From assembly GCA_903876665.1 (NCBI GenBank), contig CAIRAY010000133.1, forward strand, positions 7,742 to 39,741: 32,000 nucleotides of DNA. Direction: 5' to 3'. Below are positions 10,031 through 28,900 of this stretch, piece after piece. The stretch's first letter is position 1; each line of letters begins with the position of its first letter. The stretch comes from an uncultured Fibrobacterota bacterium. GTDB lineage: Bacteria > Fibrobacterota > Fibrobacteria > Fibrobacterales > Fibrobacteraceae. The position numbers and the translations under genes were made by a program. The notes beneath the pieces were generated by a model. The model saw nothing but the letters and a program-made list of their open reading frames with translations, did no database searches and was not told the DNA's origin.

Positions 10031-11079
10031 TAGCCACCTCCCACAAGTTCGTATATGCGATTTGCTATGTCACCTAATGGAACGATTTCATCGGCAATGC
10101 CTGCCCGCACAACGCTTCCGGGCATTCCCCAAACCACGGAACTTTGTTCGTCTTGCACCATCACCGCGCCACCGGATTTTTTAATCTCGATTGCGCCATT
10201 AGTTCCATCGCTCCCCATGCCGGTGAGCACAATGGCCAGGGTCCGGCTCCCCAATACCGGGCATGCTGAACGGAACAGAACGTTGACCGAGGGTCTGCAG
10301 CCATTGTCAGGGGGAGCATCGTTGAGCACCAGGCGAGGCAAGTTTTCGGGGCTGCGCTCCAGTGTGCAATGACGGCCTCCCGGAGCCAGATAGACCCGTC
10401 CTGGCTGAAGAGGCTCACCGTCCTGCGCTTCGCTGACGCGAATGGGACATTTACGATCCAATGCTGCCGCCATGGCCCCGGTAAATTCTTTGGGCATGTG
10501 CAGGACAATCACAATGGGAATGCGGGTAGAAGGGTGGAGGCCTGAAAGTAGTGTTACCAAGGCTTCCGGGCCTCCTGTGGAAACCCCAATCAGAATGGCA
10601 TCAAATTTGGATTCGCCCTTCAGTCGTGGAACAGGTGCCGGGGCAATGTTTGCTTTGGGCCGACTGATTTGCGCCAAGCGGGAGTATTGTTTTATGGAGC
10701 AACAACGAATTTTGGAGAGCAAAAGATTGGATACGGTATGGCTGGTTTCCAACCCAGGGACAACATCAAATGCTCCCACAGCGAGGGCATCGACAATTCG
10801 CTTGGCCCCAGTCGGTTCTTTGCTTTCCGATATGAGGATGATTCCGGCGTGGGATGAAATCTTCCGCGCCTGCACGGTGAATTCCACCAAATCCTGGCGA
10901 TCTTCGAGGAGCACAATGTCAGGGGAAAGTGTGCGCACCAGGTCAAGCCCGGTTTTCATTTCCTTGGCGGTTCCCACGATTTCCATATCCTGGGTGGCCT
11001 GGACGATCCCTTGAACAGATGGACCTTCGGTTGCCGAATTTTTGCTTACGAAAATAATGCGAATTCGGTCCTGATTCAT
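10030..11079 (-). CDS. cheB: CheB-family methylesterase/deamidase with degenerate receiver domain
   Basis: Methylesterase domain: AILIGVSTGGPEALVTLLSGL, IVIVLHMPKEFTGAMA, VYLAPGGRHCTL, TLAIVLTGMGSDGTNGAIEIK. The N-terminal region is REC-sized but lacks canonical phosphorylation residues. Confidence 0.92.
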   Translation of the reverse strand: MNQDRIRIIFVSKNSATEGPSVQGIVQATQDMEIVGTAKEMKTGLDLVRTLSPDIVLLEDRQDLVEFTVQARKISSHAGIILISESKEPTGAKRIVDALAVGAFDVVPGLETSHTVSNLLLSKIRCCSIKQYSRLAQISRPKANIAPAPVPRLKGESKFDAILIGVSTGGPEALVTLLSGLHPSTRIPIVIVLHMPKEFTGAMAAALDRKCPIRVSEAQDGEPLQPGRVYLAPGGRHCTLERSPENLPRLVLNDAPPDNGCRPSVNVLFRSACPVLGSRTLAIVLTGMGSDGTNGAIEIKKSGGAVMVQDEQSSVVWGMPGSVVRAGIADEIVPLGDIANRIYELVGGG

Positions 11080-11561
11080 GCAGTTGCTCCGAGGATTGCG
11101 CCAGCATTGAGGATTACTAGCGGGAGAGGGTCCAATCGAACCACACCTTCGACATAAGAACGGTATTGGGCCAATAGGTGAGAGGGGGCATCCTCAATAC
11201 GGGAAGGCTCAACCGTCACAATGTCCCCTACGGAACCCACAAGGAATCCGACGGGAATCGAACCCAAATAATCGAGGTCGAAATTTGGAGTATAGTCGGA
11301 AACAGCTTCGATCTCACTTGTGGTTTTGAGAATGATGATTTGGGAGTCGTCGGTGATCTGTTGTTCGGAGCCTCCCAGGCTTACCCGGAGGTCTAGTACC
11401 ACCACGACCTGGCCGCGAATGTTGACAACCCCGCTCACATCCCCGACTTTCAATGGCACGGGAGTAATGTGGACCGCAGGGGTAATTTCTTTTACTAGGC
11501 GGATGTCGAATCCGAAGAGTCCACCGGGTACTTGAAAAGAGACGAATTGTTGATGTTTCAT
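11076..11561 (-). CDS. cheW: CheW-like coupling protein
   Basis: MKHQQFVSFQVPGGLFGFDIRLVKEITPAVHITPVP...VSGVVNIRGQVVVVLDLRVSLGG. True start likely ATG 11561 (ORF track extends to 11636). ATGA overlaps with both neighbours (11558-11561 and 11076-11079). Confidence 0.9.
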   Translation of the reverse strand: MKHQQFVSFQVPGGLFGFDIRLVKEITPAVHITPVPLKVGDVSGVVNIRGQVVVVLDLRVSLGGSEQQITDDSQIIILKTTSEIEAVSDYTPNFDLDYLGSIPVGFLVGSVGDIVTVEPSRIEDAPSHLLAQYRSYVEGVVRLDPLPLVILNAGAILGATA

Positions 11562-14500
11562 GGTGAAAATTCCCGAACCCGCGCCAAAAGGGACTTCACA
11601 GCTTCGCCTAGCATAGGTAAGTTGCTTTTGGTACAAAAGTCGTCGAACCCTGCGTCCAGGGTGCGTGGCCGCATGATTTTTTCGTCCATGGCTGAAATCC
11701 CTAATAGCGGAATATGACTGAAGGCTTCGCTGGATTTAAGGTGCCGCGCCAAATCGAGCCCGTCCATGACTGGCATTTCAATGTCGCTGACCACGCAACT
11801 CACTTCGGTGTTGCGAATGATCTCCAGTGCCTCTTTGCCATTGTTTGCCGTGAGAACCTCGAGGCCGATTCCCCGCAGGTAGGATGTGACAAGGGCCCGA
11901 TAGAGGAAAGAGTCCTCAGCAAGAATGATTCGATTCGCTGCGGCATTGGGCATGTCCAACGAAGACATCCAGCCAGGTTCCACGATTTCAACCAGGGCGC
12001 AAAGGTCCAAAAGGGTAGTCGCGAACCCATTCACAATCTGAGAACCAATGATGGCAGCCTGGTCCGTGGAATGGATCAAATTGGCGTTTTCGACTTCCAC
12101 GATGCCAATGATACTGGAAGCCGCGATCCCCACAGGCTGGCCGATTTTGGGGATAATGACATGCAGGAATTCGTGGTCGTAGAGGGAGGATATGCCCGTG
12201 ATGGCTTGTTCGATGCGAACAAGGGGAATCAGGGAATTTCTGAAGCAAAGGAACTCACGCCCTCGAGCAATTTGGATTTCCTGAATCCGGATCTCATCTA
12301 CCCGCATCAGCAAGCTCAAGGGCACGGCAAATCGTTCTACTCCGTTAGTAAACACCAACATCTTTTGCTGTTCATCCTGGTTGGCAAGGACTTTGGTAGT
12401 CTGGGTTTCGGTCTTTTCGCAGCGGATTCCCCCGGTGCGGGCCAGCTCGGAAACATCTAGAATGAAGGAGGTGGTGCCATCTCCCAGAACCGTTACGCCC
12501 GCATATACCTTGCTCGCCTTGAGCTTGTCATGCAGAGGTTTGACAACGATTTCCTCTGTATCCACAATTCGCTCCACGCATAGGCCAAAGGTGTCGCTTC
12601 CGACGCGCAGCACGATGATGTAGAGGGCATTTTCCAATGCCACCCGCCGATCACGGATTTCTGCCCGCTTCCCGGTGTCGAATTCGCCTCCTTTTTGTCG
12701 GCGATCGGGAGCTTCCTCGCGACGATCCGCCACAATATCTCCGGAAATCGGATCAACGTAGGAGCGAGGGATGTTGAGAACCTTGGAAAGCCGGATAAGG
12801 GGAAGCATGTTTCCCCGGAGCCAATAGACTTCGCTCTCATCGATTTTCTGGATGCATTGGTATACCTCGTCTCCATGCAACCACACCACTTCGATGACAT
12901 TCACCTGGGGAACGGCAAAACACTGTTCCTCTACGGCGAGGATGATGGCTGGAATAATGGCAAGGGTCAGAGGGAGCTGAATGGATATGGTAGATCCGAA
13001 CCCGACCACGGAGGTGATTTCGACGATTCCACCCAATTTTTGTAAGGAGGCCCGGACCACATCCATCCCCACGCCACGTCCTGAAACTTCGGTGATCTGT
13101 TTTGCGGTGGAAAACCCGGGCAGGAATATGAGATTGAGGGCTTCGCGGTCCGAGAGGTCTTCCACCTGGGTTGGGGTCATTAAGCCTTTTTCAACTACGG
13201 CGGCCCGGATTTTTTTGGGATCGATTCCTTTCCCATCATCGGAAACCTGGATATTGACCAAGCCTGCTTGATGCTGGGCTACGAGCGAGATATGACCGAC
13301 AGCGGATTTACCACCCACTCTTCGCTCTTCGGGGGATTCGATTCCGTGATCTACCGCATTACGCACAAGATGCATCAAGGGCTCAACCATGCCATCGACG
13401 ATGCTTTTGTCCAGTTCCACATCGGATCCGCTGATGGTCAGTTCCATCTCTTTGCCCAGGCTGCGACTCAGGTCCCGAATCACCCGGGTAAACCGTCCAA
13501 ATACGCTTCCGATTGCCTGCATGCGGGTTCGCATGACGATGCGCTGGATGTCGGAGGTCACCACATTGAGGCGTTGGTTTACTGCAGAAATTTCGCGGGT
13601 ATTTCCGCTTGACTGCAACTGGGCCGAGCGGTTGCGGACCACAACCAGCTCCCCAGCAAGGTTCATGAGTTTGTCTGCAATTTCCACCGAAATGCGGACG
13701 GTTTGTTCCTGGGAGCGCGAGGCGGGCACCTGCTCCCGGGAAGTTGCAGGGACGGGTGGTTGTGGATTCGCCGTGACTTGGACTTTGGGTACTTCGATGG
13801 GTGGAGGCGCGCTTTCCGCCGGAGCGGGAAATTCTTCCGGCGTGTAATGAACAAAGGACAGCGGCTCGATTTGCAGCCCAGGAAACAGAAGGTCGGGATC
13901 ATCGATCATGGTGGCGAGAAGAAATGAGCAATCGGAAAAGGAAGGGGGAGCTGCAGTGAATGCGCTTGCTTCGGGTTTTGAATCCAGCAGGATTCCGAGG
14001 GATCCAATGGATTCATAGAGTGCAACAGGAGTGGCGGAGCTGCGGGAACATTCCTTATGGGGGTCTAGCAGGATTTCAAAAATATGCAAGCCTTGACTCT
14101 TGGCTTCGCTGGTGTCGTATTTTCGCAAATCAAAAATGGTGGCCGGCACCGCTTTGACGGGATTGGATTGGGGTGATGCGGACTGGGTGGGCTGTTGCGC
14201 AATCCTTTGCAGGTGCTGGAGGATTTGATCCACATCTCCAAGAACGCCCTTTCCGGATAAAATTCCACTTTTTAGCTTGTCCATTCCCTCAAGCAAAGTC
14301 TGGGTGATTTCGGAATTGGGCAAAAGGGTACCGTCTCGGAGCAGACCAGCTACGCTCTCCATGGCGTGGGCGAATTCCTTGACACGGTCGAAGTCCACGC
14401 AGGCTGCACCCCCCTTGATGGTGTGCAGAGCTCGGAACAGGCGGTTCACGGTCTCCTTGTCTTCCCCTGCGCCTTCTTCCAGGGCAAGGATATCCTCCTC

Positions 14501-14563
14501 GGCAGTCACCAGGTGTTCCTGTGCCTCGGTGATAAATTCCTTGATTAAATTGGCGAGATTCAT
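11558..14563 (-). CDS. cheA: CheA hybrid histidine kinase: Hpt - dimerisation/HATPase - two CheW-like domains - C-terminal REC
   Basis: Hpt: LFRALHTIKGGAACV. Kinase: LVVVRNRSAQLQ, MEPLMHLVRNAVDHGIESPEER, DDGKGIDP, GRGVGMDVVR. First CheW-like domain ends ...FILDVSELART; a second follows (MLVFTNGVERFAVPLSLLMRVDEI). REC: RIILAEDSFLYRALVTSYL...SCVVSDIEMPVMDGLDLARHL. Confidence 0.93.
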   Translation of the reverse strand: MNLANLIKEFITEAQEHLVTAEEDILALEEGAGEDKETVNRLFRALHTIKGGAACVDFDRVKEFAHAMESVAGLLRDGTLLPNSEITQTLLEGMDKLKSGILSGKGVLGDVDQILQHLQRIAQQPTQSASPQSNPVKAVPATIFDLRKYDTSEAKSQGLHIFEILLDPHKECSRSSATPVALYESIGSLGILLDSKPEASAFTAAPPSFSDCSFLLATMIDDPDLLFPGLQIEPLSFVHYTPEEFPAPAESAPPPIEVPKVQVTANPQPPVPATSREQVPASRSQEQTVRISVEIADKLMNLAGELVVVRNRSAQLQSSGNTREISAVNQRLNVVTSDIQRIVMRTRMQAIGSVFGRFTRVIRDLSRSLGKEMELTISGSDVELDKSIVDGMVEPLMHLVRNAVDHGIESPEERRVGGKSAVGHISLVAQHQAGLVNIQVSDDGKGIDPKKIRAAVVEKGLMTPTQVEDLSDREALNLIFLPGFSTAKQITEVSGRGVGMDVVRASLQKLGGIVEITSVVGFGSTISIQLPLTLAIIPAIILAVEEQCFAVPQVNVIEVVWLHGDEVYQCIQKIDESEVYWLRGNMLPLIRLSKVLNIPRSYVDPISGDIVADRREEAPDRRQKGGEFDTGKRAEIRDRRVALENALYIIVLRVGSDTFGLCVERIVDTEEIVVKPLHDKLKASKVYAGVTVLGDGTTSFILDVSELARTGGIRCEKTETQTTKVLANQDEQQKMLVFTNGVERFAVPLSLLMRVDEIRIQEIQIARGREFLCFRNSLIPLVRIEQAITGISSLYDHEFLHVIIPKIGQPVGIAASSIIGIVEVENANLIHSTDQAAIIGSQIVNGFATTLLDLCALVEIVEPGWMSSLDMPNAAANRIILAEDSFLYRALVTSYLRGIGLEVLTANNGKEALEIIRNTEVSCVVSDIEMPVMDGLDLARHLKSSEAFSHIPLLGISAMDEKIMRPRTLDAGFDDFCTKSNLPMLGEAVKSLLARVREFSP

Positions 14564-14580
14564 TCCTTCTCCGCCAAGAT

Positions 14581-16515
14581 TCAGGCAATAATTTTTAGGA
14601 CATCATTCAGCTTCTCGACATCGCTGGAGACCTGGTTAAGCGAGTTGAACATGTCTTGTATGTCTTCCGTGAAGGTCATGGCGGCGGTTTTGGATTGGTG
14701 CATGATTTCGGCTGTAGTCTCCGCCATGGAAAGGGTGCCGGAAATTCTTTCGTTCACATCCCCAATGGCCATTGCCGTACCTGCAATATTTTTCGCAACC
14801 ACATTGGCGCCTTGGGCGATTTCGTTGATGTTGTGCGAAACCTGCTTGGAGGCGTGGGCGGTTTCGGCAATCTGCCGAGCGATGGCACCTGAGCCGGTAG
14901 AGGCTTCGGAGATGTTGCTCGAAATATAGTTGGTGGCCAAGGTTTGTTTCTCCACCATATCCGAAATGACTTTCTGCAGGTGGTTGATGGTATCAATGAT
15001 GGACGAAATCAAGGCAATGGCGGAAACAGCCTTTTGAGTGTCGCCCTGAATTTTTTCGATCCGGGCCGTAATGTCTTCGGTCGCGGTTGCCGTTTGTTTG
15101 GCCAGCTCCTTCACTTCGTTTGCCACCACGGCGAAACCTCGGCCTGCGTCGCCGGCACTTGCCGCTTCGATGGCCGCGTTGAGGGCAAGCAGATTGGTTT
15201 GCTTGGCGATGACCTGGATTACGCTGGTCACTTTGCCGATTTCGTTGGCGCTTTTGCCGAGCATGCCCATGATTTCAGAAGTTTCCTTGGCTGCTACGGA
15301 AGCATTCCCTGCCACGGTGGTGCCTTCACGGGCATTTTGGGCTACGCTGTTGATTGCAGTCGAGAGGTCTTTTACTGCATTGTCCACAATGCGGAAATTG
15401 CTGGACATTTGTTCGGCGGTGGCGGCCACGGAAATCATGGTGGTGCTAATTTCTTCCGAGGTGCTCGCCACGGTATTGATGTTGGTAGAAATCTCTTCCG
15501 CTGCTGTAGCCACGGTGGAGATGGAGGAAGCCATTTTCTCGGAAGATGCCGTTAGGTCCTTGGTATAGTCCTCAAGAATTTTAATGGCCTCAATGCCGGA
15601 GCTAGTCTGAACATCATTTTCCAGAATGGTGTTTGCCATCTTTTCGGCTAAGGATTTCTGCTTGTCTGTCGAGGATCCAATGGCCTTGGCGCAGGTGGCG
15701 ATTTGTTGTTGCGTTTTGTCAATAAGCTGATTGAAAGCCACAAACAGTTCCCCTAACTCGTCTTGCGAGGTGACGGCAAGGTGCTTGGTTCCCGTTTCGC
15801 CATTGTTTTGGGTCACCAGGTTTTGTACATGGAGAATTGACTTTCGCAGAGGAACGGTGATGCTGATTCCAATGCGGTAGGAGAGAGCGAGGAGTCCGAG
15901 CAGGACCAGTATTCCAAAGCCAATTAGGCCCCGCAGAAAGTTTGCGATCATCTGGTTTGCGCTGGCTTCGGAAGCCTGATTGAGCTGGTTGGCCTGGATG
16001 ACGACCTGGTCAATGGCCGCCCGGTGGGCCTTGTATTGTGGCTTCAAAGACTTTTGCAAAACTTCCTGTGCCTGGGGGTAGTTCTTGGCTGCCAGAGCAG
16101 GTAGGAATTCCCTTTTCACGACAGCATAAAACTCCATGGCCGGTTCATAGGCCTTGTCCGTCATGGTCTCTTTTAATTGCCCATCTGGCAAGGCCCGTTG
16201 CCAAAACTTATTGCGGGTTTTGTATTCGGATTCCAGGCCTTGAAGTTTGTCCTTGAGGGCCTGGGATTCACGCGGATCCCGTTCATCCGCCAGCTGTTCG
16301 ACGGTCAGGTAGGACTCGATGATATATTCTGGTGGAGGGAGGATGTCGGCAATTAGGTCTTTTCCATTGACGATTTGTTGGTAAAGATCGCCGTTGATAC
16401 GCAGGGTCATGATTGTTTTGTAGGAGGCAAGGCCGAAAATGAGCAGTGCCGCCAGAGAAAAGGCCACAATTGCAGAAATTTTCCGGGTAATGCTTAAGCG
16501 GTTGAGAATAGCCAT
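14581..16515 (-). CDS. Methyl-accepting chemotaxis protein (two TMs, small periplasmic helical sensor, HAMP, signalling hairpin)
   Basis: [28 protein letters not shown]..., hairpin tip [41 protein letters not shown]. Likely ATG at 16515 (ORF track extends to 16584). Confidence 0.93.
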
Positions 16516-16631
16516 GAGTGTTTCCTGTTTTCGGAATGATCTTTGAGGTGCGGGTATTCTACCACCAAAGCGGTTCAAAGTCAAGAGAATGGCCTGGGCG
16601 GGCTAGTAATACTGATGTTATCTTTGAAGGC

Positions 16632-17655: not shown

Positions 17656-17690
17656 AAAAATAGCCCCGTTTTGGGGTTGTTTTTCTGCTT
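17656..17690. terminator. Intrinsic (possibly bidirectional) terminator downstream of trpS
   Basis: AAAAATAGCCCC (17656-17667) pairs with GGGGTTGTTTTT (17673-17684, including G-T wobbles) and is followed by a T-rich run. Confidence 0.75.
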
Positions 17691-17706
17691 TTGCATGCCC
17701 GCCTGT

Positions 17707-17985: not shown

Positions 17986-19851
17986 TTGAAATTGCTTTCA
18001 ATTTTCCTTGCAGTTTTACTTGGGCTTTCGAGTCTGGGATTTGGCCAAGAGTCTGAAAAGGAACGCCGTTCCCGGCAATTCTCAGCTTATTATGAGTCAT
18101 TGGTAAACCAGTCGCTTACGCGGTATTACCATAACACCTCGTTCATGGTGGATGCCCGGGTGATCCTTGCCGAGCAATCCCAGGCGCTACCGGATTCCCT
18201 CGCCGCTGCCGTGGAGCCCGCAATTGAGCCTCCATCCCAAGCGGAATCTAACAACGAGTTCCGCAATCCCGATGGGCTCGAAGCCCTTCCTGGCCTTCCG
18301 GTGATGCCCGAACAAATGCGCACCGGCGGAAAACCCTTGTTCAATCTGGAGCCCGCCAAGGCCCGTTCCCCCGCTCCCAACCCAGTGACCCGCACGGAAC
18401 TTGGAATTGAGTACATCGACATTACGGTTCTGGTGGATACCGTGTACTCTCCGGAAGATGTGGAGTTCATCATGGAGCTTGTGGGCATGGTATCCAAATT
18501 GGATGATGCCCGTGGCGACCGGGTTTTTGTCCGTAAGAAGGTATTTCCTCGGATGTCCCGGGAGCTGGAATCCGAACACCGGGTCCGCAATGACAGCATG
18601 CCCCATCCTGTCGATACGGTTCATCTGGATTCACTTGCGGAGAAATCCCATCCTTGGAATGCCTATTGGGAGCAATTGCCCTCCTTGCTTCCCCTCTTGC
18701 TGATTCTGGTTTTTTTGACCGTGATTGTCGCTGTCGTGGTCCGGGGTTTGCGTAGCGCACAAATTCCACCCGAGCTGATCAAGCACCTGGAAACCTCGCG
18801 AATGCCCGTGATTCCTCCTGTGGTGGAACCGTCCAAGCCCATGCCACAAGCCCCCGAAGCTTTGGATCAGGCCAAGTTTGACACACAACGTACCGCCTGT
18901 TTGAATGCGCTCATCGGCGACCCGGTGGGTGGAGCCATGTTGCTCAAAAACTGGATTGAGGCCGACCGTTCTAAAGGCCTGAGCGACACTGCGGTATTCA
19001 TTGAATCCCTGGACACCAAGGTTCTGGAAATTCTCAAACCCCACTTCCAGCCCCAGGATCTGAAGGGCTTGCATTTGCAGATGGACGTGCAGACCATGCC
19101 TTCCCTCGAAGACCGCACCAGTCTTCTCCTTACCTTCCACAAGGAATTGCGCAATCTCCGGTCACGAAGCACGGACGGAACTATCGCCGATATTTTTGGT
19201 TTCCTTCATCAGCTTTCCACGCCTCAGCTCATGCACATTCTAAAAGACGAACCTGTGGGGATTGTGGGACTTGCCTTGGCGCAAATCCCGGGCGAGCGTG
19301 CAGGCCTAATTCTGCAACAAATGGAGCCCGACTTCCGCACCCAGGTTTTGGTGGCCATGGGTCAAATCGACACCATCCCCGTGCAAGCCTACAAAGAAGT
19401 CGCTAATCGCCTATCCCGCAAGGCTCTTGAGGTGGGGAACATGCGTTTTGTTGCTGCGGATGGCGTACAAACTGTTCTCGATATTGTTCAGGGTCTGGGC
19501 CTGGTGGAACAGGTGGAATACCTGCGTTCTATCGCCGAGCGCGACTTGAATTTGGCCGGTCGCCTGCGTCGGTTCTATGCCCTGTTTGAGGAAATTCCCT
19601 ATTTGCCCGAGCCCATTTTGGTCAAGGTTCTCAATACTTTCGAGCGGGAACAGCTCGTTTCATCCCTGGTGGGAACCGAGGCGGATTTCCGTGAAAAACT
19701 CTTGATGTCCATGCCTCAGAGATTCCGCATGGCTGTTGATTCGGGCCTGGAAAGCAAAATGGATCAGAGCCCTCTGGAAACCGAAAGAGCCCGCAAGCTT
19801 TTGCTTGGGCTTATCCGTCAAGAATTGCAGGCCGCAGGAGGTCGCACATGA
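17986..19851 (+). CDS. FliF(C-terminal)-FliG fusion-like motor protein: signal peptide, periplasmic FliF RBM3/collar-like region, one TM, cytoplasmic FliG N/M/C-like domains
   Basis: Signal peptide MKLLSIFLAVLLGLSSLGFG; FliF-like IEYIDITVLVDTVYSPEDVEFIMELVGMVSKLDDARGDRVFVRKKVF; TM LLPLLLILVFLTVIVAVVVRGL; FliF tail-like IGDPVGGAMLLKNWI. FliG_N-like AVFIESLDTKVLEILKPHFQPQDLKGLHLQMD...LLLTFHKEL, FliG_M-like QLMHILKDEPVGIVGLALAQIPGERAGLILQQMEPDFRTQVLVAMGQIDTIPVQAYKEVANRL, and FliG_C-like LRRFYALFEEIPYLPEPILVKVLNTFEREQLVSSLVGTEADFREKLLMSMPQRFRMAVDSGL. Confidence 0.78.
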   Translation: MKLLSIFLAVLLGLSSLGFGQESEKERRSRQFSAYYESLVNQSLTRYYHNTSFMVDARVILAEQSQALPDSLAAAVEPAIEPPSQAESNNEFRNPDGLEALPGLPVMPEQMRTGGKPLFNLEPAKARSPAPNPVTRTELGIEYIDITVLVDTVYSPEDVEFIMELVGMVSKLDDARGDRVFVRKKVFPRMSRELESEHRVRNDSMPHPVDTVHLDSLAEKSHPWNAYWEQLPSLLPLLLILVFLTVIVAVVVRGLRSAQIPPELIKHLETSRMPVIPPVVEPSKPMPQAPEALDQAKFDTQRTACLNALIGDPVGGAMLLKNWIEADRSKGLSDTAVFIESLDTKVLEILKPHFQPQDLKGLHLQMDVQTMPSLEDRTSLLLTFHKELRNLRSRSTDGTIADIFGFLHQLSTPQLMHILKDEPVGIVGLALAQIPGERAGLILQQMEPDFRTQVLVAMGQIDTIPVQAYKEVANRLSRKALEVGNMRFVAADGVQTVLDIVQGLGLVEQVEYLRSIAERDLNLAGRLRRFYALFEEIPYLPEPILVKVLNTFEREQLVSSLVGTEADFREKLLMSMPQRFRMAVDSGLESKMDQSPLETERARKLLLGLIRQELQAAGGRT

Positions 19852-20972
19852 AGCGCTTGATTATTGCCCTTGCTCTTTTATGCGCCTGGCCCTCGTTTGC
19901 GGAAGACCTGAAGGCTCCGGCTTCCTCCAAAGAAAAGCAAAAAGTTCTTTTCTACGAAGACATGTACGGAAGCCGTACCGGCATCAAGCAATTCTATGAC
20001 ATCCTGAGTCAGATGCAGCGCGCCATCGGCGATCTTCCTCCCGACATCCAGCGCCTCGCCATGTACAATCTGCGTGTGGACCGCGATGACTTTACCCCGG
20101 GGATGATGAAGTTTTTTCAAGGAAAAATCGAAGAAACCTTTATCAAATATGGCCGCCGTCAGATCGTTGCCGCACCCGAATTGCGCTCCACTCGCATTGT
20201 TTCCACCGATACCTCCTTTGTCCTTTCCAATACCTTGCCTACCCAGAATGACCTGTGGAAAATTGGAGAAGCCTTGCGCCTGGACGGATTCATCGAAGGC
20301 AATTTAACCCGCAGCGAAATGGGGGATATTATGTTGAGCCTGAAGGTATTCCGCCACAAAAGCGCCGAGGTGGTGTGGTCGGGAAGCTTTGTCTCTGGGC
20401 CCAATGAGGATAAATACTATTTCCCCCTTATGGATATTGGAACTCGACTTTCCTTTGGCTATTGGCCGGTTTCAAAATACACGGATGAAACCGAAACTAT
20501 TCGGGAGCCGACCCTCAAATTGGACATGTACCAATACGCGGTGGAATTTACCGTGAGTGAAGCCGCAAATAGCAACCGGAGACTTTACTTGGGCGCAGCT
20601 GCTGGGCTAAGTTTTCTTTTCCCGGTGGCCGATAATCCCCGGGATTCCGTGGTGGGTGACTTGCCTTCGAACTGGGTGGGCATTGCTGGGGCCGATTTGG
20701 TGTATGTATTTGTTGCCAAAGAGAATTTTGACGATGGGTATTGGCTTGGGGCCTATTTAGGAATGCGGGTGTATTTCCCACAAAAATTGATCATCATCCG
20801 TCATGGCTACTCCAGTCGAATTTCTCGCCACTTCATTCTTTCCGCAGGGTTGCAATTCATGCCACTTCTCGATCAGCTGATTGCAAGCAAGTCTCTATTG
20901 TCCACTACGGGTGATTACGAGCTTAAACTGCAGAACCCTACCTATGAAGTGAGTATTCAGTATGCCTACTAA
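19848..20972 (+). CDS. Predicted outer-membrane/periplasmic protein in the motor operon; N-half loosely FlgO/CsgG-like, C-half beta-barrel-like
   Basis: Signal peptide MKRLIIALALLCAWPSFA; IGEALRLDGFIEGNLTRSEMGDIMLSLKVFRHKSAEVVWSGSF resembles the FlgO/CsgG core. Amphipathic C-terminal strands end in aromatic ...YEVSIQYAY. ATGA overlap with the upstream gene. Confidence 0.5.
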   Translation: MKRLIIALALLCAWPSFAEDLKAPASSKEKQKVLFYEDMYGSRTGIKQFYDILSQMQRAIGDLPPDIQRLAMYNLRVDRDDFTPGMMKFFQGKIEETFIKYGRRQIVAAPELRSTRIVSTDTSFVLSNTLPTQNDLWKIGEALRLDGFIEGNLTRSEMGDIMLSLKVFRHKSAEVVWSGSFVSGPNEDKYYFPLMDIGTRLSFGYWPVSKYTDETETIREPTLKLDMYQYAVEFTVSEAANSNRRLYLGAAAGLSFLFPVADNPRDSVVGDLPSNWVGIAGADLVYVFVAKENFDDGYWLGAYLGMRVYFPQKLIIIRHGYSSRISRHFILSAGLQFMPLLDQLIASKSLLSTTGDYELKLQNPTYEVSIQYAY

Positions 20973-21747
20973 TCCTTTTTGGTTGCCACGGATCCTGGGC
21001 CTAAGCATGGTCTGCGCTTTGGTGGCTTGCTCCAGCAATCCTCCCCAGGAAGAGGGCTACTTGCCTGGTTCCGCATCGGATGATTCCGCTGGCTGGGCCC
21101 AAACTCCGATCCGTCCCGTACAAAAGCAGAGACCCGTTTCGGGGATCACCATGACGTACCACAATGATGCGTCGACATTGCAGATGACGATTGACCCATA
21201 CGATGAAAATTTGAACATCGAAATGAAACGGAGTCCGCACACCCAAGAGGTGGCTGTTCCTGAAAAACCGCGCCGGGATACGGTCTTCATGATGTCCCCG
21301 CAAGCAGCCTCGGCTCCTACAAATGTATCGGTACAAGCTCCTCCGACTTCCGTGAATGTGCAATTACAGCTTCCTCCAGAGCGTCGGGATTCCTCCAAGG
21401 CGGTTCCAGCGATTGATACTGCCGGGCTCGGCCAAAAGCAGCTGGACCTGCTCAAATCCAAGGAGAAGGAATGGGCAGATGCGACCGATGAGGTGATCAC
21501 CAATATTCGTCTGGCCCAAGAATACTTCTACAAACAGGACTATTCCTCTGCGCTTCGTCTGGTAAAGATCGCAGAAGAAAAGCGCCCTACCGCCGAGGGA
21601 TATGCCCTGCGGGGAAGCATCATGTATATGTTGCGGGATAACGGCGCGGCCCGTTTTTACTGGAGCCAGGCTCTAACGCTCAATCCTAATCTTCCCGATG
21701 TAATCCAAGCGCTTTCCAAGCTGGATCAGACGAAGGAAGGTCGCTAA
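20962..21747 (+). CDS. Lipoprotein with C-terminal TPR-like repeats
   Basis: Lipobox in ILGLSMVCALVACSSNPP; C-terminal NIRLAQEYFYKQDYSSALRLVKIAEEKRPTAEGYALRGSIMYMLRDNGAARFYWSQALTLNPNLPDVIQALSKL is TPR-like. 11-bp overlap with the upstream CDS. Confidence 0.65.
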   Translation: MPTNPFWLPRILGLSMVCALVACSSNPPQEEGYLPGSASDDSAGWAQTPIRPVQKQRPVSGITMTYHNDASTLQMTIDPYDENLNIEMKRSPHTQEVAVPEKPRRDTVFMMSPQAASAPTNVSVQAPPTSVNVQLQLPPERRDSSKAVPAIDTAGLGQKQLDLLKSKEKEWADATDEVITNIRLAQEYFYKQDYSSALRLVKIAEEKRPTAEGYALRGSIMYMLRDNGAARFYWSQALTLNPNLPDVIQALSKLDQTKEGR

Positions 21748-22562
21748 TGCCTCTTTCACTGTCCACTCTTGCCGGAGTGATTTTTGGAACCATTGTGGTG
21801 ATCTGGGGTATTTCCACTGCAACCACCAACACGAGGGCCTTTCTGGATCTGGGAAGTTTTTTGATTGTGGTGGGTGGAACGTTGACCTCGACATTTATCG
21901 GGTTCCGGGCCCGCTACATTTTTAAGGCGTTGCTCGCTCTTCCGCTGATTTTTCTGCGTCAGCGCATTAATCCAGAAAGCCTGCGTGATGATATTCGTAA
22001 GGTCATTGATTGGAATAAGCGAATTCAGGAAGGTGGGGCAAAGGCTCTGGATGTTTTGGCGACGGATTCGAAAGAGTCGGATTTTGTGCGTTACGTATTT
22101 GGCCTGGTCGCAACGGGATACAAGGAACATGAGGTCGAAGCATTTTCTACCACACAGATTGAGGAAGAATATTTCCGTGGCCTTCAGCAGCCCAATATTC
22201 TAGCCTACATGGCTGCTGCCGCCCCGGCTTTTGGAATGCTCGGTACTTTGATCGGTCTGATTGCGATGTTGGATAAATTGGATGATCCATCCAAGATGGG
22301 ACCCGGCCTTGCTCTCGCCCTGATTACCACCCTCTACGGAGTGATCGCTGCCCGCTTTGTCTTTTTACCTGCATCTACCAAGGTAAAGCAGATTTATGGC
22401 ATTCAGCGTTTTCGCAACTATTTGCTTCTCGAGGGGGTGGGCCTAATCATGCAGAAGCGGTCGGCCCTGTACATTCAAGATCGGTTAAACTCTTTTATGG
22501 ATACCAAGTATCGACTTTCGGTGCTGGATGAGAAGACCAGCCAAGCCAGCAAGTCCAAGTAG
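21747..22562 (+). CDS. motA: MotA-like stator protein
   Basis: FLDLGSFLIVVGGTLTSTFIGF; ILAYMAAAAPAFGMLGTLIGLIAMLDKLDDPSKMGPGLALALITTLYGVIAARFVFLP. TAATG junction with the upstream CDS. Confidence 0.9.
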   Translation: MPLSLSTLAGVIFGTIVVIWGISTATTNTRAFLDLGSFLIVVGGTLTSTFIGFRARYIFKALLALPLIFLRQRINPESLRDDIRKVIDWNKRIQEGGAKALDVLATDSKESDFVRYVFGLVATGYKEHEVEAFSTTQIEEEYFRGLQQPNILAYMAAAAPAFGMLGTLIGLIAMLDKLDDPSKMGPGLALALITTLYGVIAARFVFLPASTKVKQIYGIQRFRNYLLLEGVGLIMQKRSALYIQDRLNSFMDTKYRLSVLDEKTSQASKSK

Positions 22563-22568
22563 GTCTCC

Positions 22569-23249
22569 ATGTCTCTTAAGAGTCAACCCAATCGCTACCG
22601 CAATGATGAAGGATATGATTCTGCGGGCATGGATGAATGGCTGGGAACCTATTCCGATATGGTTACTCTGCTTCTCGCCTTCTTTGTTTTGATGATGGGA
22701 ATTTCGAAGGTGGAACCCGCATTGTGGGAATCCATGAAATCAGGTCTTCGTTCCGAAATTTCTGGCCAGGAAAAAGTAAAAACACCCCTCGCTGAAATTA
22801 AGCATGACTTGGATTCTCTTCTCTCGGTGGAGCAAGCCCAGAACCTGGTAAAAATTGAAATGACCCAAGAAGGGATTGTGATGAAATTTGCCAGTTCCGC
22901 CTTTTATCAGGCGGGAAGCGCCGAGGTCGGAGCCCAAGCCAAAGGGATCATGGATCGGGTTGTTGTTGCGATGAAGAATATCGATTATTACCCGTTTCAA
23001 ATTGATATTGAAGGGCACACGGACAATGTCCCCATACATACCGAACGATATCCCTCCAATTGGGAACTTTCCGTGTCTCGGGCAACCAACATCGTGAAGT
23101 ACATGCTCGCCCAAGGGGTTGCCCCCGATCGTCTCAAGGCGGCTGGTTACGCGGATACCAAGCCAATTCTCCCCAACCTCGATTCATTGGGGAAGGGAAT
23201 CGACTCCAATCAGGCCCAGAATCGGCGCATTGTCGTCCGTATTCATTGA
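22569..23249 (+). CDS. motB: MotB-like stator protein with OmpA-type peptidoglycan-binding domain
   Basis: WLGTYSDMVTLLLAFFVLMMGIS (plug/TM with the channel Asp), then FQIDIEGHTDNVPIHTERYPSNWELSVSRATNIVKYML...RLKAAGYADTKPI...QAQNRRIVVRI. Confidence 0.92.
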   Translation: MSLKSQPNRYRNDEGYDSAGMDEWLGTYSDMVTLLLAFFVLMMGISKVEPALWESMKSGLRSEISGQEKVKTPLAEIKHDLDSLLSVEQAQNLVKIEMTQEGIVMKFASSAFYQAGSAEVGAQAKGIMDRVVVAMKNIDYYPFQIDIEGHTDNVPIHTERYPSNWELSVSRATNIVKYMLAQGVAPDRLKAAGYADTKPILPNLDSLGKGIDSNQAQNRRIVVRIH

Positions 23250-23260
23250 TTTTAAACGCC

Positions 23261-23977
23261 ATGCCCAGCCAATACAGCGAGCTTCATGGCGTTCATATTC
23301 GGAAGACCATCGAGAAATTGTGTCGTCGCATTCACGAGCGTTTTCCTGGGTCCGGACTGGGTGGAGTTGCTGCGGAGCTGGAGCAGGTTTCTGCGGAAAA
23401 TGAACGAGTGGTGAGCCAATTACAAAAGCCGATTTGGTGGCTGCGAGTGCTCACCGTGATTGCGATTGGCTCCTTGGTTAGCTTGTTTTCTTGGGTCGCC
23501 TTTCGGTTGGCAACCCTTGCGCTTACGGGTGCAGCGACTCTTTCCGACGTTCTGCAGGGCATGGATGCGGGCATCAATGAAGTCGTCTTTCTTACTTTGG
23601 CAATAGCCTTCCTGGTGTCTTTGGAGAATCGTATCAAGCGTGGCAAGGCCTTGCGCATCCTGCATAAATTGCGGAGCATTGCGCATGTGGTGGATATGCA
23701 CCAACTTACCAAGGATCCAGAATATCTATTATATCCCGAGGCTCCTTTGGCCAATTCTCCGGAGCGCTTGTTGGACCGACATCAATTGGTCCGCTACTTG
23801 GATTACTGTTCCGAATTGCTTTCCTTGACCGCAAAACTTGCCGCATTGCACGGGCAGTCCATGCAGGATGCCCAGGTGCTAGAAACGGTCAATGATTTGG
23901 AAAGCCTTGCTTCGGATCTCTCCCGCAAGGTTTGGCAGAAGATCTCCATCTTGAGATCCTCCGGCGATGGAAATTAA
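23261..23977 (+). CDS. Conserved-looking membrane protein, last gene of the motor operon
   Basis: ATG at 23261 (MPSQYSELHGVHIRKTIEKL...), 12 nt after the motB stop; the ORF track's earlier start at 23060 lies inside motB. Two predicted TMs (WWLRVLTVIAIGSLVSLFSWVAF; VVFLTLAIAFLVSL). Unknown function. Confidence 0.7.
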   Translation: MPSQYSELHGVHIRKTIEKLCRRIHERFPGSGLGGVAAELEQVSAENERVVSQLQKPIWWLRVLTVIAIGSLVSLFSWVAFRLATLALTGAATLSDVLQGMDAGINEVVFLTLAIAFLVSLENRIKRGKALRILHKLRSIAHVVDMHQLTKDPEYLLYPEAPLANSPERLLDRHQLVRYLDYCSELLSLTAKLAALHGQSMQDAQVLETVNDLESLASDLSRKVWQKISILRSSGDGN

Positions 23978-25193: not shown

Positions 25194-25991
25194 ATGAAGT
25201 CTTTAGCAGCCCTTTTCCTGACCTTAATGCTGTTTGCTGGTTGCTCCAAGCATCCCGAACCTGGAGTAGAGCCTTCCCGGGGCGAAGCCGCGCCTTGTGA
25301 CGGGTGCGCTCAAGGTGGGGACCCCAAGCTCACCGTGGTGGATTCTTCCATTTGGATGGAAACGGTTCCCGGGTTTTCCCTAGGCCAAATTTCACGTCCC
25401 CTGGGTGTTTTGCCTTTTATCCAGGTGGAGGCAATCTCTCCCCCAAAGTGCAAGTTCTGCCAGGCTTTTAGCGGGGAAGGGGTTGAGTTTGATTTTGGCT
25501 CGGCCCAGGACAGCCTTCTTTCCGCAGTGGATTCCACCCTGCAGCCTTCCTTGCTCATGCCTGGATTGCAGGTTCCCGAACGGGATTCGGTTTTGTTTCC
25601 CCTACTGCTCGATTCGATTGCGGCACTCCCCTTTGTCGAGGGGAAAGCGTTATCTGACTTTGGCCCCTGGGAAGAACGGGGAAACCAGACCACGGAAATG
25701 CTACGGAATATTCCGCCCTCCTTGAGGACCAAGCTCTCTCAGCTCGCTACCCGGTATGGAGTGAATTCCCTGGTTATGCCCGTGAGGTGTCGAGTGGAAA
25801 TGGATCCCGGTGCCGGGGAAGAGGGTGGCTATACTTTCCAGATTCTCTGGATGCTATTTGACGCGAAGAAGAGTCAGTTTAGCATGATTGTGCACGCCAA
25901 ACTGACGATCGAGACCCAAGGCGACGCCCCTCCTGATCGAGGTTGGAGTCACCCATTCATGGTCTGGCTTGGAAAGAACCTAGCCCAATAG
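25194..25991 (+). CDS. Hypothetical lipoprotein
   Basis: Lipobox MKSLAALFLTLMLFAGCSKHPEP; no recognised domain. Convergent with the next gene with only 3 nt between stops. Confidence 0.65.
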   Translation: MKSLAALFLTLMLFAGCSKHPEPGVEPSRGEAAPCDGCAQGGDPKLTVVDSSIWMETVPGFSLGQISRPLGVLPFIQVEAISPPKCKFCQAFSGEGVEFDFGSAQDSLLSAVDSTLQPSLLMPGLQVPERDSVLFPLLLDSIAALPFVEGKALSDFGPWEERGNQTTEMLRNIPPSLRTKLSQLATRYGVNSLVMPVRCRVEMDPGAGEEGGYTFQILWMLFDAKKSQFSMIVHAKLTIETQGDAPPDRGWSHPFMVWLGKNLAQ

Positions 25992-25994
25992 GGC

Positions 25995-28900
25995 CTATTT
26001 TCTTTCCAGCAAAATCATGGGTGTCGTGGCGTCCAAAATGGATTCCCATTCCCTGCGGATTCCCTCATATTCCGATGCGTCCGCGTAAACCGACAGAGTT
26101 TCCCAGCGCATGCTGCTCGAGCTGTTCTGGGTTGTTGGCTTCTGGTCCAGCTGGATGTAATTCAGAGCATCCAACCCTTGGGATGCTTGCTTCAGTGAAA
26201 TCCCGAAACGATCTGGTCCACGGACCTTGAGGCTCCAGGAGAAGGTGGTTTCGTGGGGTAAGCGCAAGGGGTGATGGCGTTTGGTGATTTTGGGTAAACG
26301 CATGAAGCTTCTCTCCCAAATATTCGGGAACGCCCCTTGAATCCGGTCGGGACTCTGCCCAAAGTAATGAGCGGAAGTAAAGGTGACAATGAGGACCAGC
26401 GGTTTTGCAAATTCCTGCACGTTCTCTACTTTTAGGCTATTGATGGTGGCGTCAGGAATGGCTTGTTCGAGCCAGTTTGCGAGATAGCGGGTCCGTTCCT
26501 TTTGATCGCGGGAAATCATTTGTGCGCGCATGGCCGAGCCAAATTTGCCAAATAGAGTCAAGCTATCACGAAATTCGGCTTTTCCGGTGGAGTCGATGTA
26601 GAGGCTATGAGCGATGAAGGCTTGGTGTTCCTGGTCTTTTTCGAGAACCGGAGTCACGGAAATTTGAGAAGAATCCCCGTTGATGATTAGCGAAACCTTG
26701 CCTTCCAGATCTAGCGCAATGGGTCTGCGCGCTCCAGCCTTGTCGGTAGGATCTAGCCAAAGATCAGGCCAGTTTTTGCCTGCAGGCACATAGAGGACCA
26801 TGTGGTTGAACTGTTGTATGGTGGGTAAGGCCTCCGAGCCTGGTTCCTCCAAATTGACCAAGGCCATGCGGGACTTGATTCCAATGGTTTCCAGCATTTC
26901 CTTGAGGAGGAGGGACTGATCCTTGCAGTCGCCCTGGCGTTCGTTCAGGGTTGCCAGGGAAAGACTTGGAATCAAGGAATGCCCGCCAAAGGCGATGTCG
27001 CGATAGCGGATGTTTTCGCGCACCCAATCCGCCATGCGGAATATGGTCTCTTGATCGAGGGCGCGGCTACCACGTACTTCAAAGGCCTTTTCCCGTACCG
27101 GAATACTGGATTTAAACTGGTGCTGGATCATGTTCTGGTAATCCCGTCCCACCTGTTCCCAGCTCTGTTTTCCGGCGATCAGGACTCCCGCCCCGAAATC
27201 CCGGTAAACGGGCATAAATACTTCCTTGCGAATGACCACGGGAGCATCCACCGTCCATTCGATTCCACCCGGAACAGCCATTCTTTCAATGGGGCCGTAT
27301 TCTTCGGTAACGATGCTCGAGGTGTCGGTCAGCAGACGCAGAATGTCTTTGCCCACGGGAATGTCCTGTGAAGCCATGTGATGGGTGAAAGGAATCACCC
27401 CGGTATTTTCAATGCTGGTGCGGGAGACTTGAAAATAGATGAAGTCCCCGGGCTTGAGGTCGGTGAGGGGAAGGTGTGCCATTTGGGCATCGCTACCCGA
27501 TCCAGCCTCATTGAGGTAGGTGATGTATGCCTCTTTCACCGACCAGCGGGTTTTGAGCTTCCAACTGGAATCATAGACTTCAAGCGCATTCACAAATATG
27601 CGGTCGAATCCAGGGAGGAATGTGTAGGTAAATTCCTGGAAGAGGCCTGCGCCCCGCGGATCCAAAATCTCGATGAGGGCTTGCTGGGTACGGATCCAGG
27701 ACGCATTCTTGTTGGTCTTGAGAGCCTCTTCCTGCCAGTGGACCACGGCGGGAAATTCCTCGGCCCGGGCGGAATCGACGAGTCCCGCCTTCAATTCATC
27801 CTTCAGGTTACGGGGGCGGGAAACCACGGGTTCAATGGTGGCTTGCAAGGCCCGGATGTCCGCTTTTCCCAGAAACGCCTTGGTCGCGGAAAGGAAACTT
27901 TTCGCATCTTCATCGTCTGGCTTCAGTTCCAAAGCCTTATGCAGGGTGTTCTCTGCCATGCGGAATTGTTTCAAATGGAACTGGGTCTTCCCGCGGGCAT
28001 TCCAAACTTCAAAATTGTTGCTGACTTTGGGAAGTAATTCATCGGAGATGGCCAATGCCTCCTGATGTCTCCCCAAGAATGTGAGCGCATCGATTATGGC
28101 AAGTCCAATATCTTTGTTCAGAGTGAAACGACGTTTTACCGAATAAAGAAGATCCACCGCCTCTGAGTATTGATCGAGGCCCATCAAGGTTTTTGCGACA
28201 TATACGCCAAGCCGTGCCGAGGGTTGCTTGCGGTAAAGACCTTGCACGATCTCCAAGGATTGGGTGCGTTGGCCGATACCCCAAAGGGCGTCCGAGGTGT
28301 TGATCACCAGCTCGGGATCATGTGGGCTATATTGGAGTGCCATCTCATAGTATTGTAGAGCCCGATTGTAATCATGCAGCGATTCGTACATTTCGCCCAG
28401 AATCGCAAGCAGCTTTCCGCTCTTTTTGATCAAGTCGATTTGGGATAGGAAATGGTCTGTTCCCGGGCCGAATAAATTCCTCATTTGGTAAACAAATCCA
28501 CAATTGATCAAATACAAGGGTTCGGAAGGATCCATGTGGTTTGCTTTTTCAAAATAGGACAATGCGACCAGAGGCTGATCTTCGGCTAGGCGCAACAAGC
28601 CGACTTGATTTACGATGCGTGCGTTGAATTGTTGCAGGCGGGCCTGCTGGGGGAGACCTCCGGCCGGAACGGGCTCCAGCTTGAGACCATCAAGGGCGCG
28701 GTCAATCGCTTTGCGGTATCCACCGGCCAAAGAATTTTGGGTCCAGGTCGCGATCAGGATTCCGCGCCCATTTTCGTAAAAGAATCGTCCCCGATAAAAG
28801 AAGTCATAGCCACTGATCAGGCGGACGCTTTGGAAATCCTGGGTGAATACGTCCCCACTGCCTTTTTTTGTGGTTTCGAGATCGGGCGAGTCCGGGTCGA

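Follow-up and report, generated by a model that had tools for sequence, protein, structure and literature searches.

A gene on the forward strand of the window (positions 17986–19851 (+) of the 32,000-nucleotide stretch analyzed here, from contig CAIRAY010000133.1 of an uncultured Fibrobacterota bacterium) encodes a 621-residue protein that sequence profiles and structure prediction identify as the C-terminal third of the flagellar ring protein FliF joined head to tail to a complete FliG. The FliF part comprises the third ring-building motif (RBM3), the second transmembrane helix (TM2), and the FliG-binding tail. The open reading frame (ORF) begins with TTG, agrees exactly with the ORF list for the window, and opens a five-gene operon in which reading frames overlap or abut: the fusion, two genes termed here g2 and g3, motA and motB. 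That the fusion and the five-gene system are correctly identified, taken as one claim, is close to certain in our judgment. An earlier prediction, made from the DNA sequence, had proposed a single polypeptide made of a truncated FliF and a complete FliG, and had named in advance what would speak against it, namely the absence of FliF likeness in the N-terminal part or of FliG likeness in the C-terminal part. Both likenesses were found, and the proposal is borne out by sequence profiles, structure prediction, and fold search.

Domain plan of the fusion protein

The plan confirmed by profiles and models is a Sec-type signal peptide, an RBM3-like domain, a TM helix, the FliG-binding tail of FliF, and the N-terminal, middle, and C-terminal domains of FliG (FliG_N, FliG_M, and FliG_C) without a break. 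A word-index search recovered 52 homologues (∼580–630 residues; mostly from Fibrobacterota metagenomes, with Elusimicrobia and KSB1 also represented), which could be aligned over their whole length and have a common plan. In the N-terminal half, the signal peptide is followed by a helix (YYE..L.RYY), a strand (TFLV.AKV), a variable insert containing LPGLPxxP, a second strand (ILVDT), a helix, and the RGDRV strand; beyond these lie the TM helix, a Pro-rich linker, a helical region, and FliG_M and FliG_C. AlphaFold2 (AF2) models computed with the family alignment had a mean predicted local distance difference test score (pLDDT) of 81.5 for the full-length protein and 77.3 for an N-terminal construct.

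The clearest result concerns the junction of the two halves. A profile of residues 286–402 was aligned to an artificial concatenate of E. coli FliF 481–552 and FliG 1–105 and to 2000 shuffles. One uninterrupted alignment, with a four-residue insertion at the seam, was obtained at 34.6 bits (E = 8e-13 for a single-sequence search); the concatenate scored 35.3 bits as a whole sequence, and the best of the shuffles scored 10.8 bits. Each side was also recognized alone, the FliF tail at 13.8 bits (E. coli FliF 535–552) and FliG_N at 19.3 bits overall and 18.3 bits in its best stretch (E. coli FliG 6–73), scores that none of the 2000 shuffles equaled. Likewise, a profile of family residues 1–400 aligned to the end of E. 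coli FliF up to its last residue (552 of 552), and the profile positions that follow aligned to E. coli FliG from residue 6; G331 onward in the window protein corresponds to FliG residue 6 onward. Because the tail ends at FliF 552 and FliG begins at residue 6, the gene is a seamless join of the 3′ end of fliF to the 5′ end of fliG, and the earlier claim of a FliF-tail-like segment running straight into FliG is strongly upheld. The FliG-binding helices themselves (18853–18969 (+), residues 290–328) were placed by the junction profile and by invariant columns: R302, G311, P313, and W323 are invariant or nearly so in the family alignment. Residues 312–328 (DPVGGAMLLKNWIEADR) pair with DPRVVALVIRQWINNDHE of E. 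coli FliF, which we take to be the helix that binds FliG_N in the known FliF-FliG complexes.

The FliG half could be assigned over its full length, as predicted. The FliG_N-like domain (18976–19185 (+), residues 331–400) is defined by the 18.3-bit match and by Foldseek, and its helices were modeled with pLDDT >90; matches to the Pfam FliG_N model, PF14842, fall on the middle region and are cross-matches. FliG_M (19195–19455 (+), residues 404–490) was matched by PF14841 over residues 414–485 (40.2 bits, cut-off 25; 4e-10) and FliG_C (19462–19836 (+), residues 493–617) by PF01706 over residues 515–612 (43.1 bits, cut-off 23.3; 5.5e-11), both models exceeding their thresholds in 42 of 42 members. 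These two domains were also aligned to E. coli FliG by hhalign (98.6% probability; query 407–618 to FliG 110–319), column counts adding to the definition of FliG_M. In Foldseek searches with the full-length model, the best fold matches were full-length FliG structures (311–324 aligned columns), and FliF ring structures ranked directly after them. The protein does not reach the FliG equivalog level of NCBIfam (TIGR00207; 62.4 bits, cut-off 226.7). Two functional sites of FliG differ in their conservation. The torque helix (nt 19714–19764 (+), residues 577–593, within FliG_C) retains R579, the equivalent of E. coli R281, in 62 of 63 members, and an acidic residue is present at position 587 in 42 and at position 589 in 48 of 65 members (G587 and E589 in the window protein); of the E. 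coli charges K264, R281, D288, D289, and R297, the equivalents of K264 and R297 are variable in the family. The FliM-binding motif EHPQR is degenerate, reading KDEPVG in the window protein and K-[DE]-E-[SP]-x-[EG] in the family, with only E422 kept. Reduced in this way to one Glu, the site is unlikely to bind a FliM/FliN switch complex.

The periplasmic part is predicted to consist of one RBM3-like ring-building domain (18055–18549 (+), residues 24–188). In the AF2 model, the α-β-β-α-β ring-building motif is evident and is interrupted where RBM3 of FliF has its collar, giving an α-β-(insert)-β-α-β order over residues 24–184 with core pLDDT >90 (α1 24–45, β1 53–61, insert 62–132, β2 141–150, α2 156–169, RGD 176–178, β3 179–184). 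The domain includes the DITVLVDT...RGDRVFV string. When the N-terminal model was compared with the PDB by Foldseek, the top 13 matches were all RBM3/S-ring regions of FliF (E 3e-3 to 1e-2, probability 0.90–1.00), the compact core superposing over ∼50 residues at 1.1–1.4 Å with 18%–24% identity. A family profile aligned by hhalign to E. coli FliF gave a single match (E = 1.1e-5, 82% probability; query 139–193 to FliF 372–435). This segment of FliF is the RBM3 β-α-β unit just before TM2, and an RGD-x-(L/V)-x-V...F motif is common to both. In addition, PF08345 (YscJ_FliF_C) matched 17 of 42 homologues at E < 0.01 in a per-member Pfam scan, and four of six members rescanned individually exceeded the 23.8-bit gathering cut-off; the matches are always limited to model positions ∼71–147 and lie on the ILVDT...RGDRV block. 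Searches by sequence alone were less telling: an N-terminal alignment profile found no FliF match among PDB chains, and a full-length profile reached only FliF 449–558 at E = 0.35. Since these gave no clear FliF match, hhalign, Pfam scans of homologues, and structure comparison were needed to establish the link. Starting from E. coli FliF, a homologue search brought back enterobacterial sequences alone, all of at least 85% identity and too uniform for a diverse profile; single-sequence hhalign and local hidden Markov model (HMM) tests with shuffles were therefore used.

RBM1 and RBM2 are absent. Neither the window protein nor any of 42 homologues and ten variants was matched by PF01514 (YscJ_FliF), which covers both, and a local profile scored −2.2 bits against E. 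coli FliF 46–225. The prediction that only about one RBM, with likeness to FliF, is retained therefore agrees with the profile and fold comparisons. The collar-like region that it had also described did not hold up. The insert at the β-collar position (18169–18381 (+), residues 62–132) was modeled with low confidence and as mostly non-regular in both AF2 models, with segments at pLDDT <50 and no long β-hairpins; its length is 71 residues in the window protein and 46 in the family median. The models thus describe a short disordered stretch, rather than a real β-collar, that carries an invariant LPGLPxxP motif (nt 18286–18309 (+), residues 101–108; invariant columns L101, P102, G103, P105, and P108). 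An equivalence of this motif to the FliF collar motif GVPGALSNQP was considered but found no support, as the Pfam and HMM alignments begin downstream of it.

Two hydrophobic segments, residues 1–20 and 231–253, stand out in the hydropathy profile. At the N terminus, where FliF has TM1, the fusion has a predicted Sec-type signal peptide (17986–18045 (+), residues 1–20; MKLLSIFLAVLLGLSSLGFG, followed by Q). The segment can be read as MK, LLSIFLAVLLGL, and SSLGFG before that Q, with a hydrophobic region of ∼12–15 residues and small residues at −1 and −3. Across the family alignment, the n-region is basic, the h-region is uncharged with a median of 15 residues, less than a TM helix needs, and the end is of the AQ or AxA type. 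The suggestion that a cleavable-looking signal peptide replaces TM1 is thus supported as to the signal-peptide pattern, and cleavage itself is plausible. The single TM helix that had been foreseen is found at residues 231–253 (18676–18744 (+); hydropathy peak 3.3, AF2 helix 224–257). It is followed by basic residues, as expected for an N-out/C-in orientation, is taken as the equivalent of FliF TM2, and lies in a region weakly co-linear with the TM2-tail region of FliF.

The operon, its distribution, and its neighbors

A terminator-like hairpin with a T-run (17656–17694 (+); 13-pair stem, T-rich tail) follows trpS and would mark the upstream boundary of the transcription unit. The start of g2 (19848–20972 (+)) overlaps the stop codon of the fusion (ATGA). 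The gene encodes a 374-residue secreted protein with a signal peptide and a conserved periplasmic N-terminal domain (PPEL...E.VWS.SF), and in nearly all homologues the last residue of its C-terminal half is aromatic, Phe or another. Weak Pfam matches to OMP_b-brl hint at an outer-membrane β-barrel-like protein, synteny and selection on the gene forming the rest of the basis for its inclusion. A sequence comparison of g2 with solved structures found no relative; one g2 homologue weakly matches FlgO (E = 0.05). The product of g3 (20962–21747 (+)) is a 261-residue lipoprotein with the lipobox LVAC followed by S and with C-terminal tetratricopeptide (TPR) repeats. The fusion, g2, and g3 are without a curated family in either Pfam or NCBIfam.

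The last two genes encode a stator of the flagellar type. The MotA/PomA subunit (21747–22562 (+), 271 residues) matches PomA and MotA structures over its full length (PomA 4.9e-27), and its scores against the NCBIfam models for MotP, PomA, and MotA range from 1e-34 to 1e-36, compared with 5.7e-4 for TolQ. Its channel prolines P160 and P208, the counterparts of E. coli P173 and P222, are invariant. MotB (22569–23249 (+), 226 residues) matches the MotD, MotS, and MotB models of NCBIfam and has a conserved plug segment, an OmpA-like peptidoglycan-binding domain, and the TM residue Asp30, present in 58 of 58 sequences in the context YSDMxTLLLAFF (compare YADFMTAMMAFF in E. coli). Both subunits fall below every NCBIfam equivalog cut-off and so appear to belong to a divergent subfamily. 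Position 587 of the FliG part (nt 19744–19746) and position 97 of MotA (nt 22035–22037) co-vary, with Glu-Arg in 37 loci, Gly/Ser-Gly in 15, and two exceptions. The pattern fits an interface charge pair but may be phylogenetic, as it follows the split between Balneolaceae and Fibrobacterota.

Where flanking sequence suffices, the arrangement fusion-g2-TPR-MotA-MotB recurs in essentially all of the 63 loci taken from species-representative genomes, among them many Balneolaceae, Gracilimonas tropica DSM 19535 (locus L037), and Balneola sp. EhC07. The same order was observed in an Elusimicrobia-like contig, a 1.36-Mb Fibrobacter-like contig, a KSB1 genome, and a Balneolaceae-like contig; the cassette spans four phyla, represented by Fibrobacterota, Balneolaceae, Elusimicrobia, and KSB1. 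The nearest species-representative homologue, labeled Fibrobacteraceae, is 64% identical. At E ≤ 1e-3, a full-sensitivity HMMER search with the N-terminal part only returned ∼600 representative clusters, and 191 at the stricter E ≤ 1e-10, mostly of ∼600–690 residues, a recurrence of the architecture that is far beyond chance. In the public databases, such homologues are annotated as “flagellar motor switch protein FliG” or “FliG C-terminal domain-containing protein.” No homologue of FliF, FliH, FliI, FliE, or Che proteins was found in the 67 other loci examined (1.03 Mb), and no flagellar export or basal-body gene is linked to the cassette in these loci or in the window.

Selection was estimated from the ratio of nonsynonymous to synonymous substitution rates (dN/dS; Nei-Gojobori, medians over 22–52 moderately diverged pairs per gene). 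The medians were 0.116 for the fusion, 0.098 for g2, 0.139 for g3, 0.086 for MotA, and 0.052 for MotB, values that indicate strong purifying selection on all five genes. Within the fusion, the RBM core (0.037), FliG_M (0.044), and FliG_C (0.042) were the lowest, and the FliF tail with FliG_N (0.146) and the TM/linker (0.22) were higher; the values for the RBM core and FliG_C form part of the basis on which those domains were assigned.

Some distant RBM-TM relatives depart from the common plan and carry an N-terminal LysM domain (P0254, P0256, P0227, and P0271). In one locus (L069, 6666–8891), the LysM variant is still fused to FliG and is followed by MotA and MotB(OmpA), without g2. In another (L070, 3633–4601), a complete 322-residue LysM-RBM-TM protein is encoded with a 160-residue TPR partner, without FliG or MotAB. 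Each of the two variants is preceded by an unannotated protein of ∼970–995 residues. The LysM domain is restricted to such distant variants, and the clade of the window lacks it.

Several neighbors of the cassette deserve mention. In the Elusimicrobia-like locus (L001, 5641–9773), genes for a CHASE2-Ser/Thr kinase, a PP2C phosphatase, and an FHA protein with a YscD-cytoplasmic-like domain lie directly upstream on the same strand and could be a phospho-regulatory input; FHA/YscD-like domains form the cytoplasmic part of the injectisome ring protein SctD. In the window, motB is followed by an ORF (23246–23977 (+), 243 residues) that belongs to no Pfam or NCBIfam family and for which no other locus has an equivalent behind motB; the same two databases hold no family for a second ORF (25194–25991 (+), 265 residues). 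A 1263-residue protein with TPR, DUF3857, and transglutaminase-core regions is encoded nearby (25995–29786 (−)), and a 1253-residue homologue lies directly downstream of motB in a Fibrobacter-like locus (L002, 15221–18982). It may be a lineage-specific neighbor of the system in Fibrobacterota.

On the other side of the operon, a complete chemosensory cluster occupies 8766–16584 (−): CheY (8766–9164), CheR, CheB, CheW, CheA (11558–14563; 1001 residues with Hpt, kinase, CheW-like, and receiver domains), and a methyl-accepting chemotaxis protein (14581–16584). A functional link of this cluster to the cassette was considered and rejected, as none of the 67 other loci has a Che gene. Farther out, a 760-residue fusion of CHASE2, adenylate/guanylate cyclase, and PilZ (3676–5958 (−)) joins a cyclase to a c-di-GMP-type receptor, an unusual combination, and is followed on the same strand by a FecR-domain protein (2909–3679) and a β-helix-like protein of 540 residues (1290–2912). 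A HAMP-cyclase is found 2 kb from the cassette in another locus (L068). The window also encodes a Fib_succ_major-domain protein (41–1279; listed as an ORF that lacks an upstream stop inside the window), a PL8-family polysaccharide lyase (6161–8479), and a type IV pilin-like protein whose N terminus bears a methylation motif (31007–31810). These last three genes are consistent with a polymer-degrading, pilus-bearing Fibrobacterota host.

A candidate rotor and its alternatives

We consider the chances somewhat better than even that the cassette encodes an autonomous, MotAB-driven rotor of S-ring and FliG that is independent of the flagellum and operates without an export gate, rod, or switch. 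From the topology predicted for the fusion, the RBM3-like domain would reach the periplasm by way of the signal peptide, and the FliF tail and FliG would stay in the cytoplasm behind the single TM helix. By homology to the flagellar S-ring, the RBM3 domains would oligomerize into a ring in the membrane and, as every subunit brings its own FliG, the ring would possess a built-in 1:1 FliG torque ring. The original prediction had supposed a simplified membrane-supramembrane (MS)/C ring or a different oligomer, and either may be what the fusion forms. MotA5B2-type units, encoded downstream of the fusion beyond g2 and g3, would be anchored to peptidoglycan by the OmpA-like domain of MotB. Ions would pass the stator through the channel with the conserved Asp30 and plug, and the units would push the torque helix of FliG_C and turn the ring. 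With RBM1 and RBM2 missing, there would be no housing for an export gate; rod, hook, and filament would be lacking as well. With the FliM-binding motif degenerate, there would be no switch complex. Such a motor would turn in one direction and would not act as a secretion machine. Speculatively, the periplasmic face of the ring with its LPGLPxxP loops may engage the TPR lipoprotein and the outer-membrane-barrel-like protein, work thereby reaching the outer membrane or the cell surface. That the whole cassette is an unrecognized envelope machine of this kind, in which MotAB turns an S-ring/FliG ring without type III export apparatus, rod, hook, filament, or switch and the work is passed to the outer-membrane protein and the TPR lipoprotein, is a more tentative proposal, to which we give slightly less than an even chance.

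Several observations weigh against a rotor of this design. Family-level profiles, hhalign, and a Foldseek E-value that is modest (∼3e-3) carry the link to RBM3: the fusion protein alone matched no FliF model in Pfam at E ≤ 1, and a periplasmic profile scored a marginal 10.0 bits against E. coli FliF 226–445, the best of 2000 shuffles reaching 9.2, even though the match lands on the RBM3b segment found by hhalign. Three of the five classical torque-helix charges of FliG are not conserved, and the charge pair between FliG 587 and MotA 97 is absent in the clade of the window. The host of the window carries a full Che cluster and could be flagellated itself. Finally, in the LysM variant that is fused to FliG, both the supposed rotor (through LysM) and the stator (through OmpA) would bind peptidoglycan, which is hard to square with free rotation, and in the other variant the RBM protein and its TPR partner occur without either FliG or MotAB.

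It is because of these LysM variants that a second explanation is kept alive, which we regard as unlikely: the fusion, alone or as a static ring, may be a non-rotating force transducer that couples the work of MotAB to the RBM domain, the TPR lipoprotein, and the outer-membrane protein, in the manner of ExbBD-TonB or TolQRA-Pal. The resemblance of the partners to an outer-membrane barrel and a lipoprotein fits such a coupler, as does the only partial conservation of the torque-helix charges. LysM would tether the RBM protein to peptidoglycan while MotB binds it too, and the RBM-TM and TPR pair without FliG or MotAB implies that the periplasmic module has a role of its own and suggests that the pair is the conserved periplasmic core. 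However, the stator, with its plug and large cytoplasmic domain, is of the flagellar and not the ExbB/TolQ type, the RBM core, FliG_M, and FliG_C rank with the most tightly constrained regions of the fusion (dN/dS ∼0.04), and LysM is confined to relatives outside the clade of the window. To our knowledge, FliG_N, FliG_M, and FliG_C together with RBM3 build a rotating ring in every known case.

Much less probable is that the fusion is simply the MS-ring/FliG protein, if an unusual one, of the host’s ordinary flagellum. Flagella are held to be ancestral in the Fibrobacteres and to have been lost, along with chemotaxis genes, in Fibrobacteraceae (PMC4704652). The complete Che cluster next door means that the host of the window cannot be called non-flagellated; the host may belong to another lineage, or the generalization about Fibrobacteraceae may fail. 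Engineered FliF-FliG fusions, moreover, work in Salmonella, as cited in PMC4768692. Against this stand the absence of RBM1 and RBM2 and the loss of the FliM-binding EHPQR motif, as well as the nature of g2 and g3, which are not flagellar proteins. RBM1 and RBM2 are the parts of FliF that face the export gate. Nor is any flagellar gene linked to the cassette in 68 loci. The cassette is also present in G. tropica, which is described as non-motile (PMC5167729) and is reported to lack flagellar-assembly genes (PMC9909488), and the system is therefore independent of the flagellum.

A functionless remnant left to decay after loss of the flagellum, which the supposed flagellated ancestry and broken flagellar pathways of Fibrobacteraceae and Balneolaceae (PMC4704652, PMC9909488) might suggest, is effectively refuted: dN/dS of 0.05–0.14 across all five genes excludes a decaying relic, and catalytic residues are invariant, synteny is fixed in four phyla with the two non-flagellar partner genes included, and the N-terminal part alone retrieves representative clusters by the hundreds. 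Membership in a Zorya-like anti-phage defense system built on a MotAB-type stator was rejected as the least probable reading of all: MotB matches the ZorB models (2.8e-17), as any MotB homologue would, but PADLOC has no match for the fusion, g2, g3, or MotA (and hence no ZorA), the cassette contains no ZorC- or ZorD-like nuclease or helicase genes, and its chromosomal synteny is stable across phyla and not patchy like that of defense islands, which leaves a generic ZorB/MotB similarity.

Relation to known systems and significance

Compared with FliF and FliG of Salmonella and E. coli, the fusion has the same RBM3 β-α-β unit with RGD..V..F just before TM2, the FliG-binding helices (D-P-x-x-V/x-A-x-x-I/L-x-x-W-I), the three FliG domains in the same order, and the torque-helix Arg equivalent to E. 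coli R281, and it is accompanied by a MotA/PomA-MotB stator with plug, Asp, and OmpA-like domain. It differs in lacking RBM1, RBM2, a true β-collar, and the EHPQR motif, in having a probable signal peptide where TM1 would be, and in scoring below the TIGR00207 cut-off. In contrast to fliF and fliG, the gene is not linked to fliE/H/I/PQR or axial genes and is co-operonic with an outer-membrane-barrel-like protein and a TPR lipoprotein. The seam itself corresponds to that of laboratory fusions in Salmonella, in which the last residues of FliF are joined to about residue 5 of FliG; such fusions, engineered in full-length and deletion versions, include ones that stay functional, as cited in PMC4768692 and PMC6079021.

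The closest published precedent is a FliF-FliG fusion of Chlamydiaceae, bacteria regarded as non-flagellated, in which a shortened FliF is followed by FliG-like sequence (Bergeron, 2016, PeerJ 4:e1718; PMC4768692). It is built differently at every point of its architecture. By the published description, the chlamydial protein has ∼330 residues, two TM helices, an RBM2-like (SctJ-like) and a second RBM-like region, and a FliG M-like domain only, whereas the window protein has RBM3 only, one TM helix, the FliF tail, three FliG domains, and a MotAB operon. The chlamydial fusion was discussed in relation to the injectisome, with no MotAB operon described, and was proposed to be possibly ancestral or recruited to another machine (PMC4768692).

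The cassette is also reminiscent of the scaffolds of complex flagellar motors (MotX, MotY, FlgO, FlgP, and FlgT in Vibrio; PflA, PflB, and FlgP in Campylobacter), in which periplasmic TPR proteins and outer-membrane-associated proteins or lipoproteins work with MotAB or PomAB stators. Neither g2 nor g3 has a significant sequence match to these scaffold families, and the resemblance, which is architectural and drawn in part from general knowledge, can serve as a lead only. With ExbBD-TonB, TolQR-TolA-Pal, GldLM, and ZorAB, the system has in common an inner-membrane, ion-driven motor of the MotA/ExbB family co-encoded with proteins that reach the outer membrane; the phyla of the Fibrobacteres-Chlorobi-Bacteroidetes group that host the cassette also use GldLM, for type IX secretion and gliding. 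Unlike all four, it has a flagellar-type stator (plug, OmpA-like anchor, and PomA-like cytoplasmic domain), and in none of them is a FliG-bearing ring protein paired with the stator. No published description of the cassette was found in the literature searched, which lay mostly outside subscription journals, and an earlier description is possible; a term search of a survey from 2025 on MotAB and related non-flagellar systems (PMC12505986) gave no match that would point to it.

The annotation of such fusions as FliG has a practical consequence, in that pathway surveys may count the cassette as a remnant of flagellar assembly and mis-score the genomes that carry it. The “incomplete route” noted for Balneolaceae (PMC9909488) may be an example.

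By what route an ion motor of the MotAB type came to power a FliG ring on the basal body of a secretion system is a long-open question about how the flagellar motor originated. The cassette presents the rotor-stator part alone (RBM3, a covalent FliF-FliG interface, a complete FliG, and flagellar-type MotAB); export-gate housing, axial structure, and switch are lacking, and the purifying selection on it is strong in at least four phyla. Should FliG and MotAB of the cassette fall outside the flagellar clades, the cassette could be a living relative of a pre-flagellar rotor and stator module; should they nest within, the motor would have been exapted once the flagellum was lost. Two questions become testable in cultured organisms, namely whether an S-ring by itself suffices for a FliG ring to assemble and turn, and what a flagellar-type motor can power in a diderm envelope besides a filament. 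As a minimal natural rotor, in which one gene supplies MS-ring and FliG ring at a fixed 1:1 ratio, the fusion could also serve structural and synthetic work. If the proposed rotation is correct, the cassette would be a new kind of bacterial rotary device, and one found in cultivable bacteria such as G. tropica and Balneola sp.

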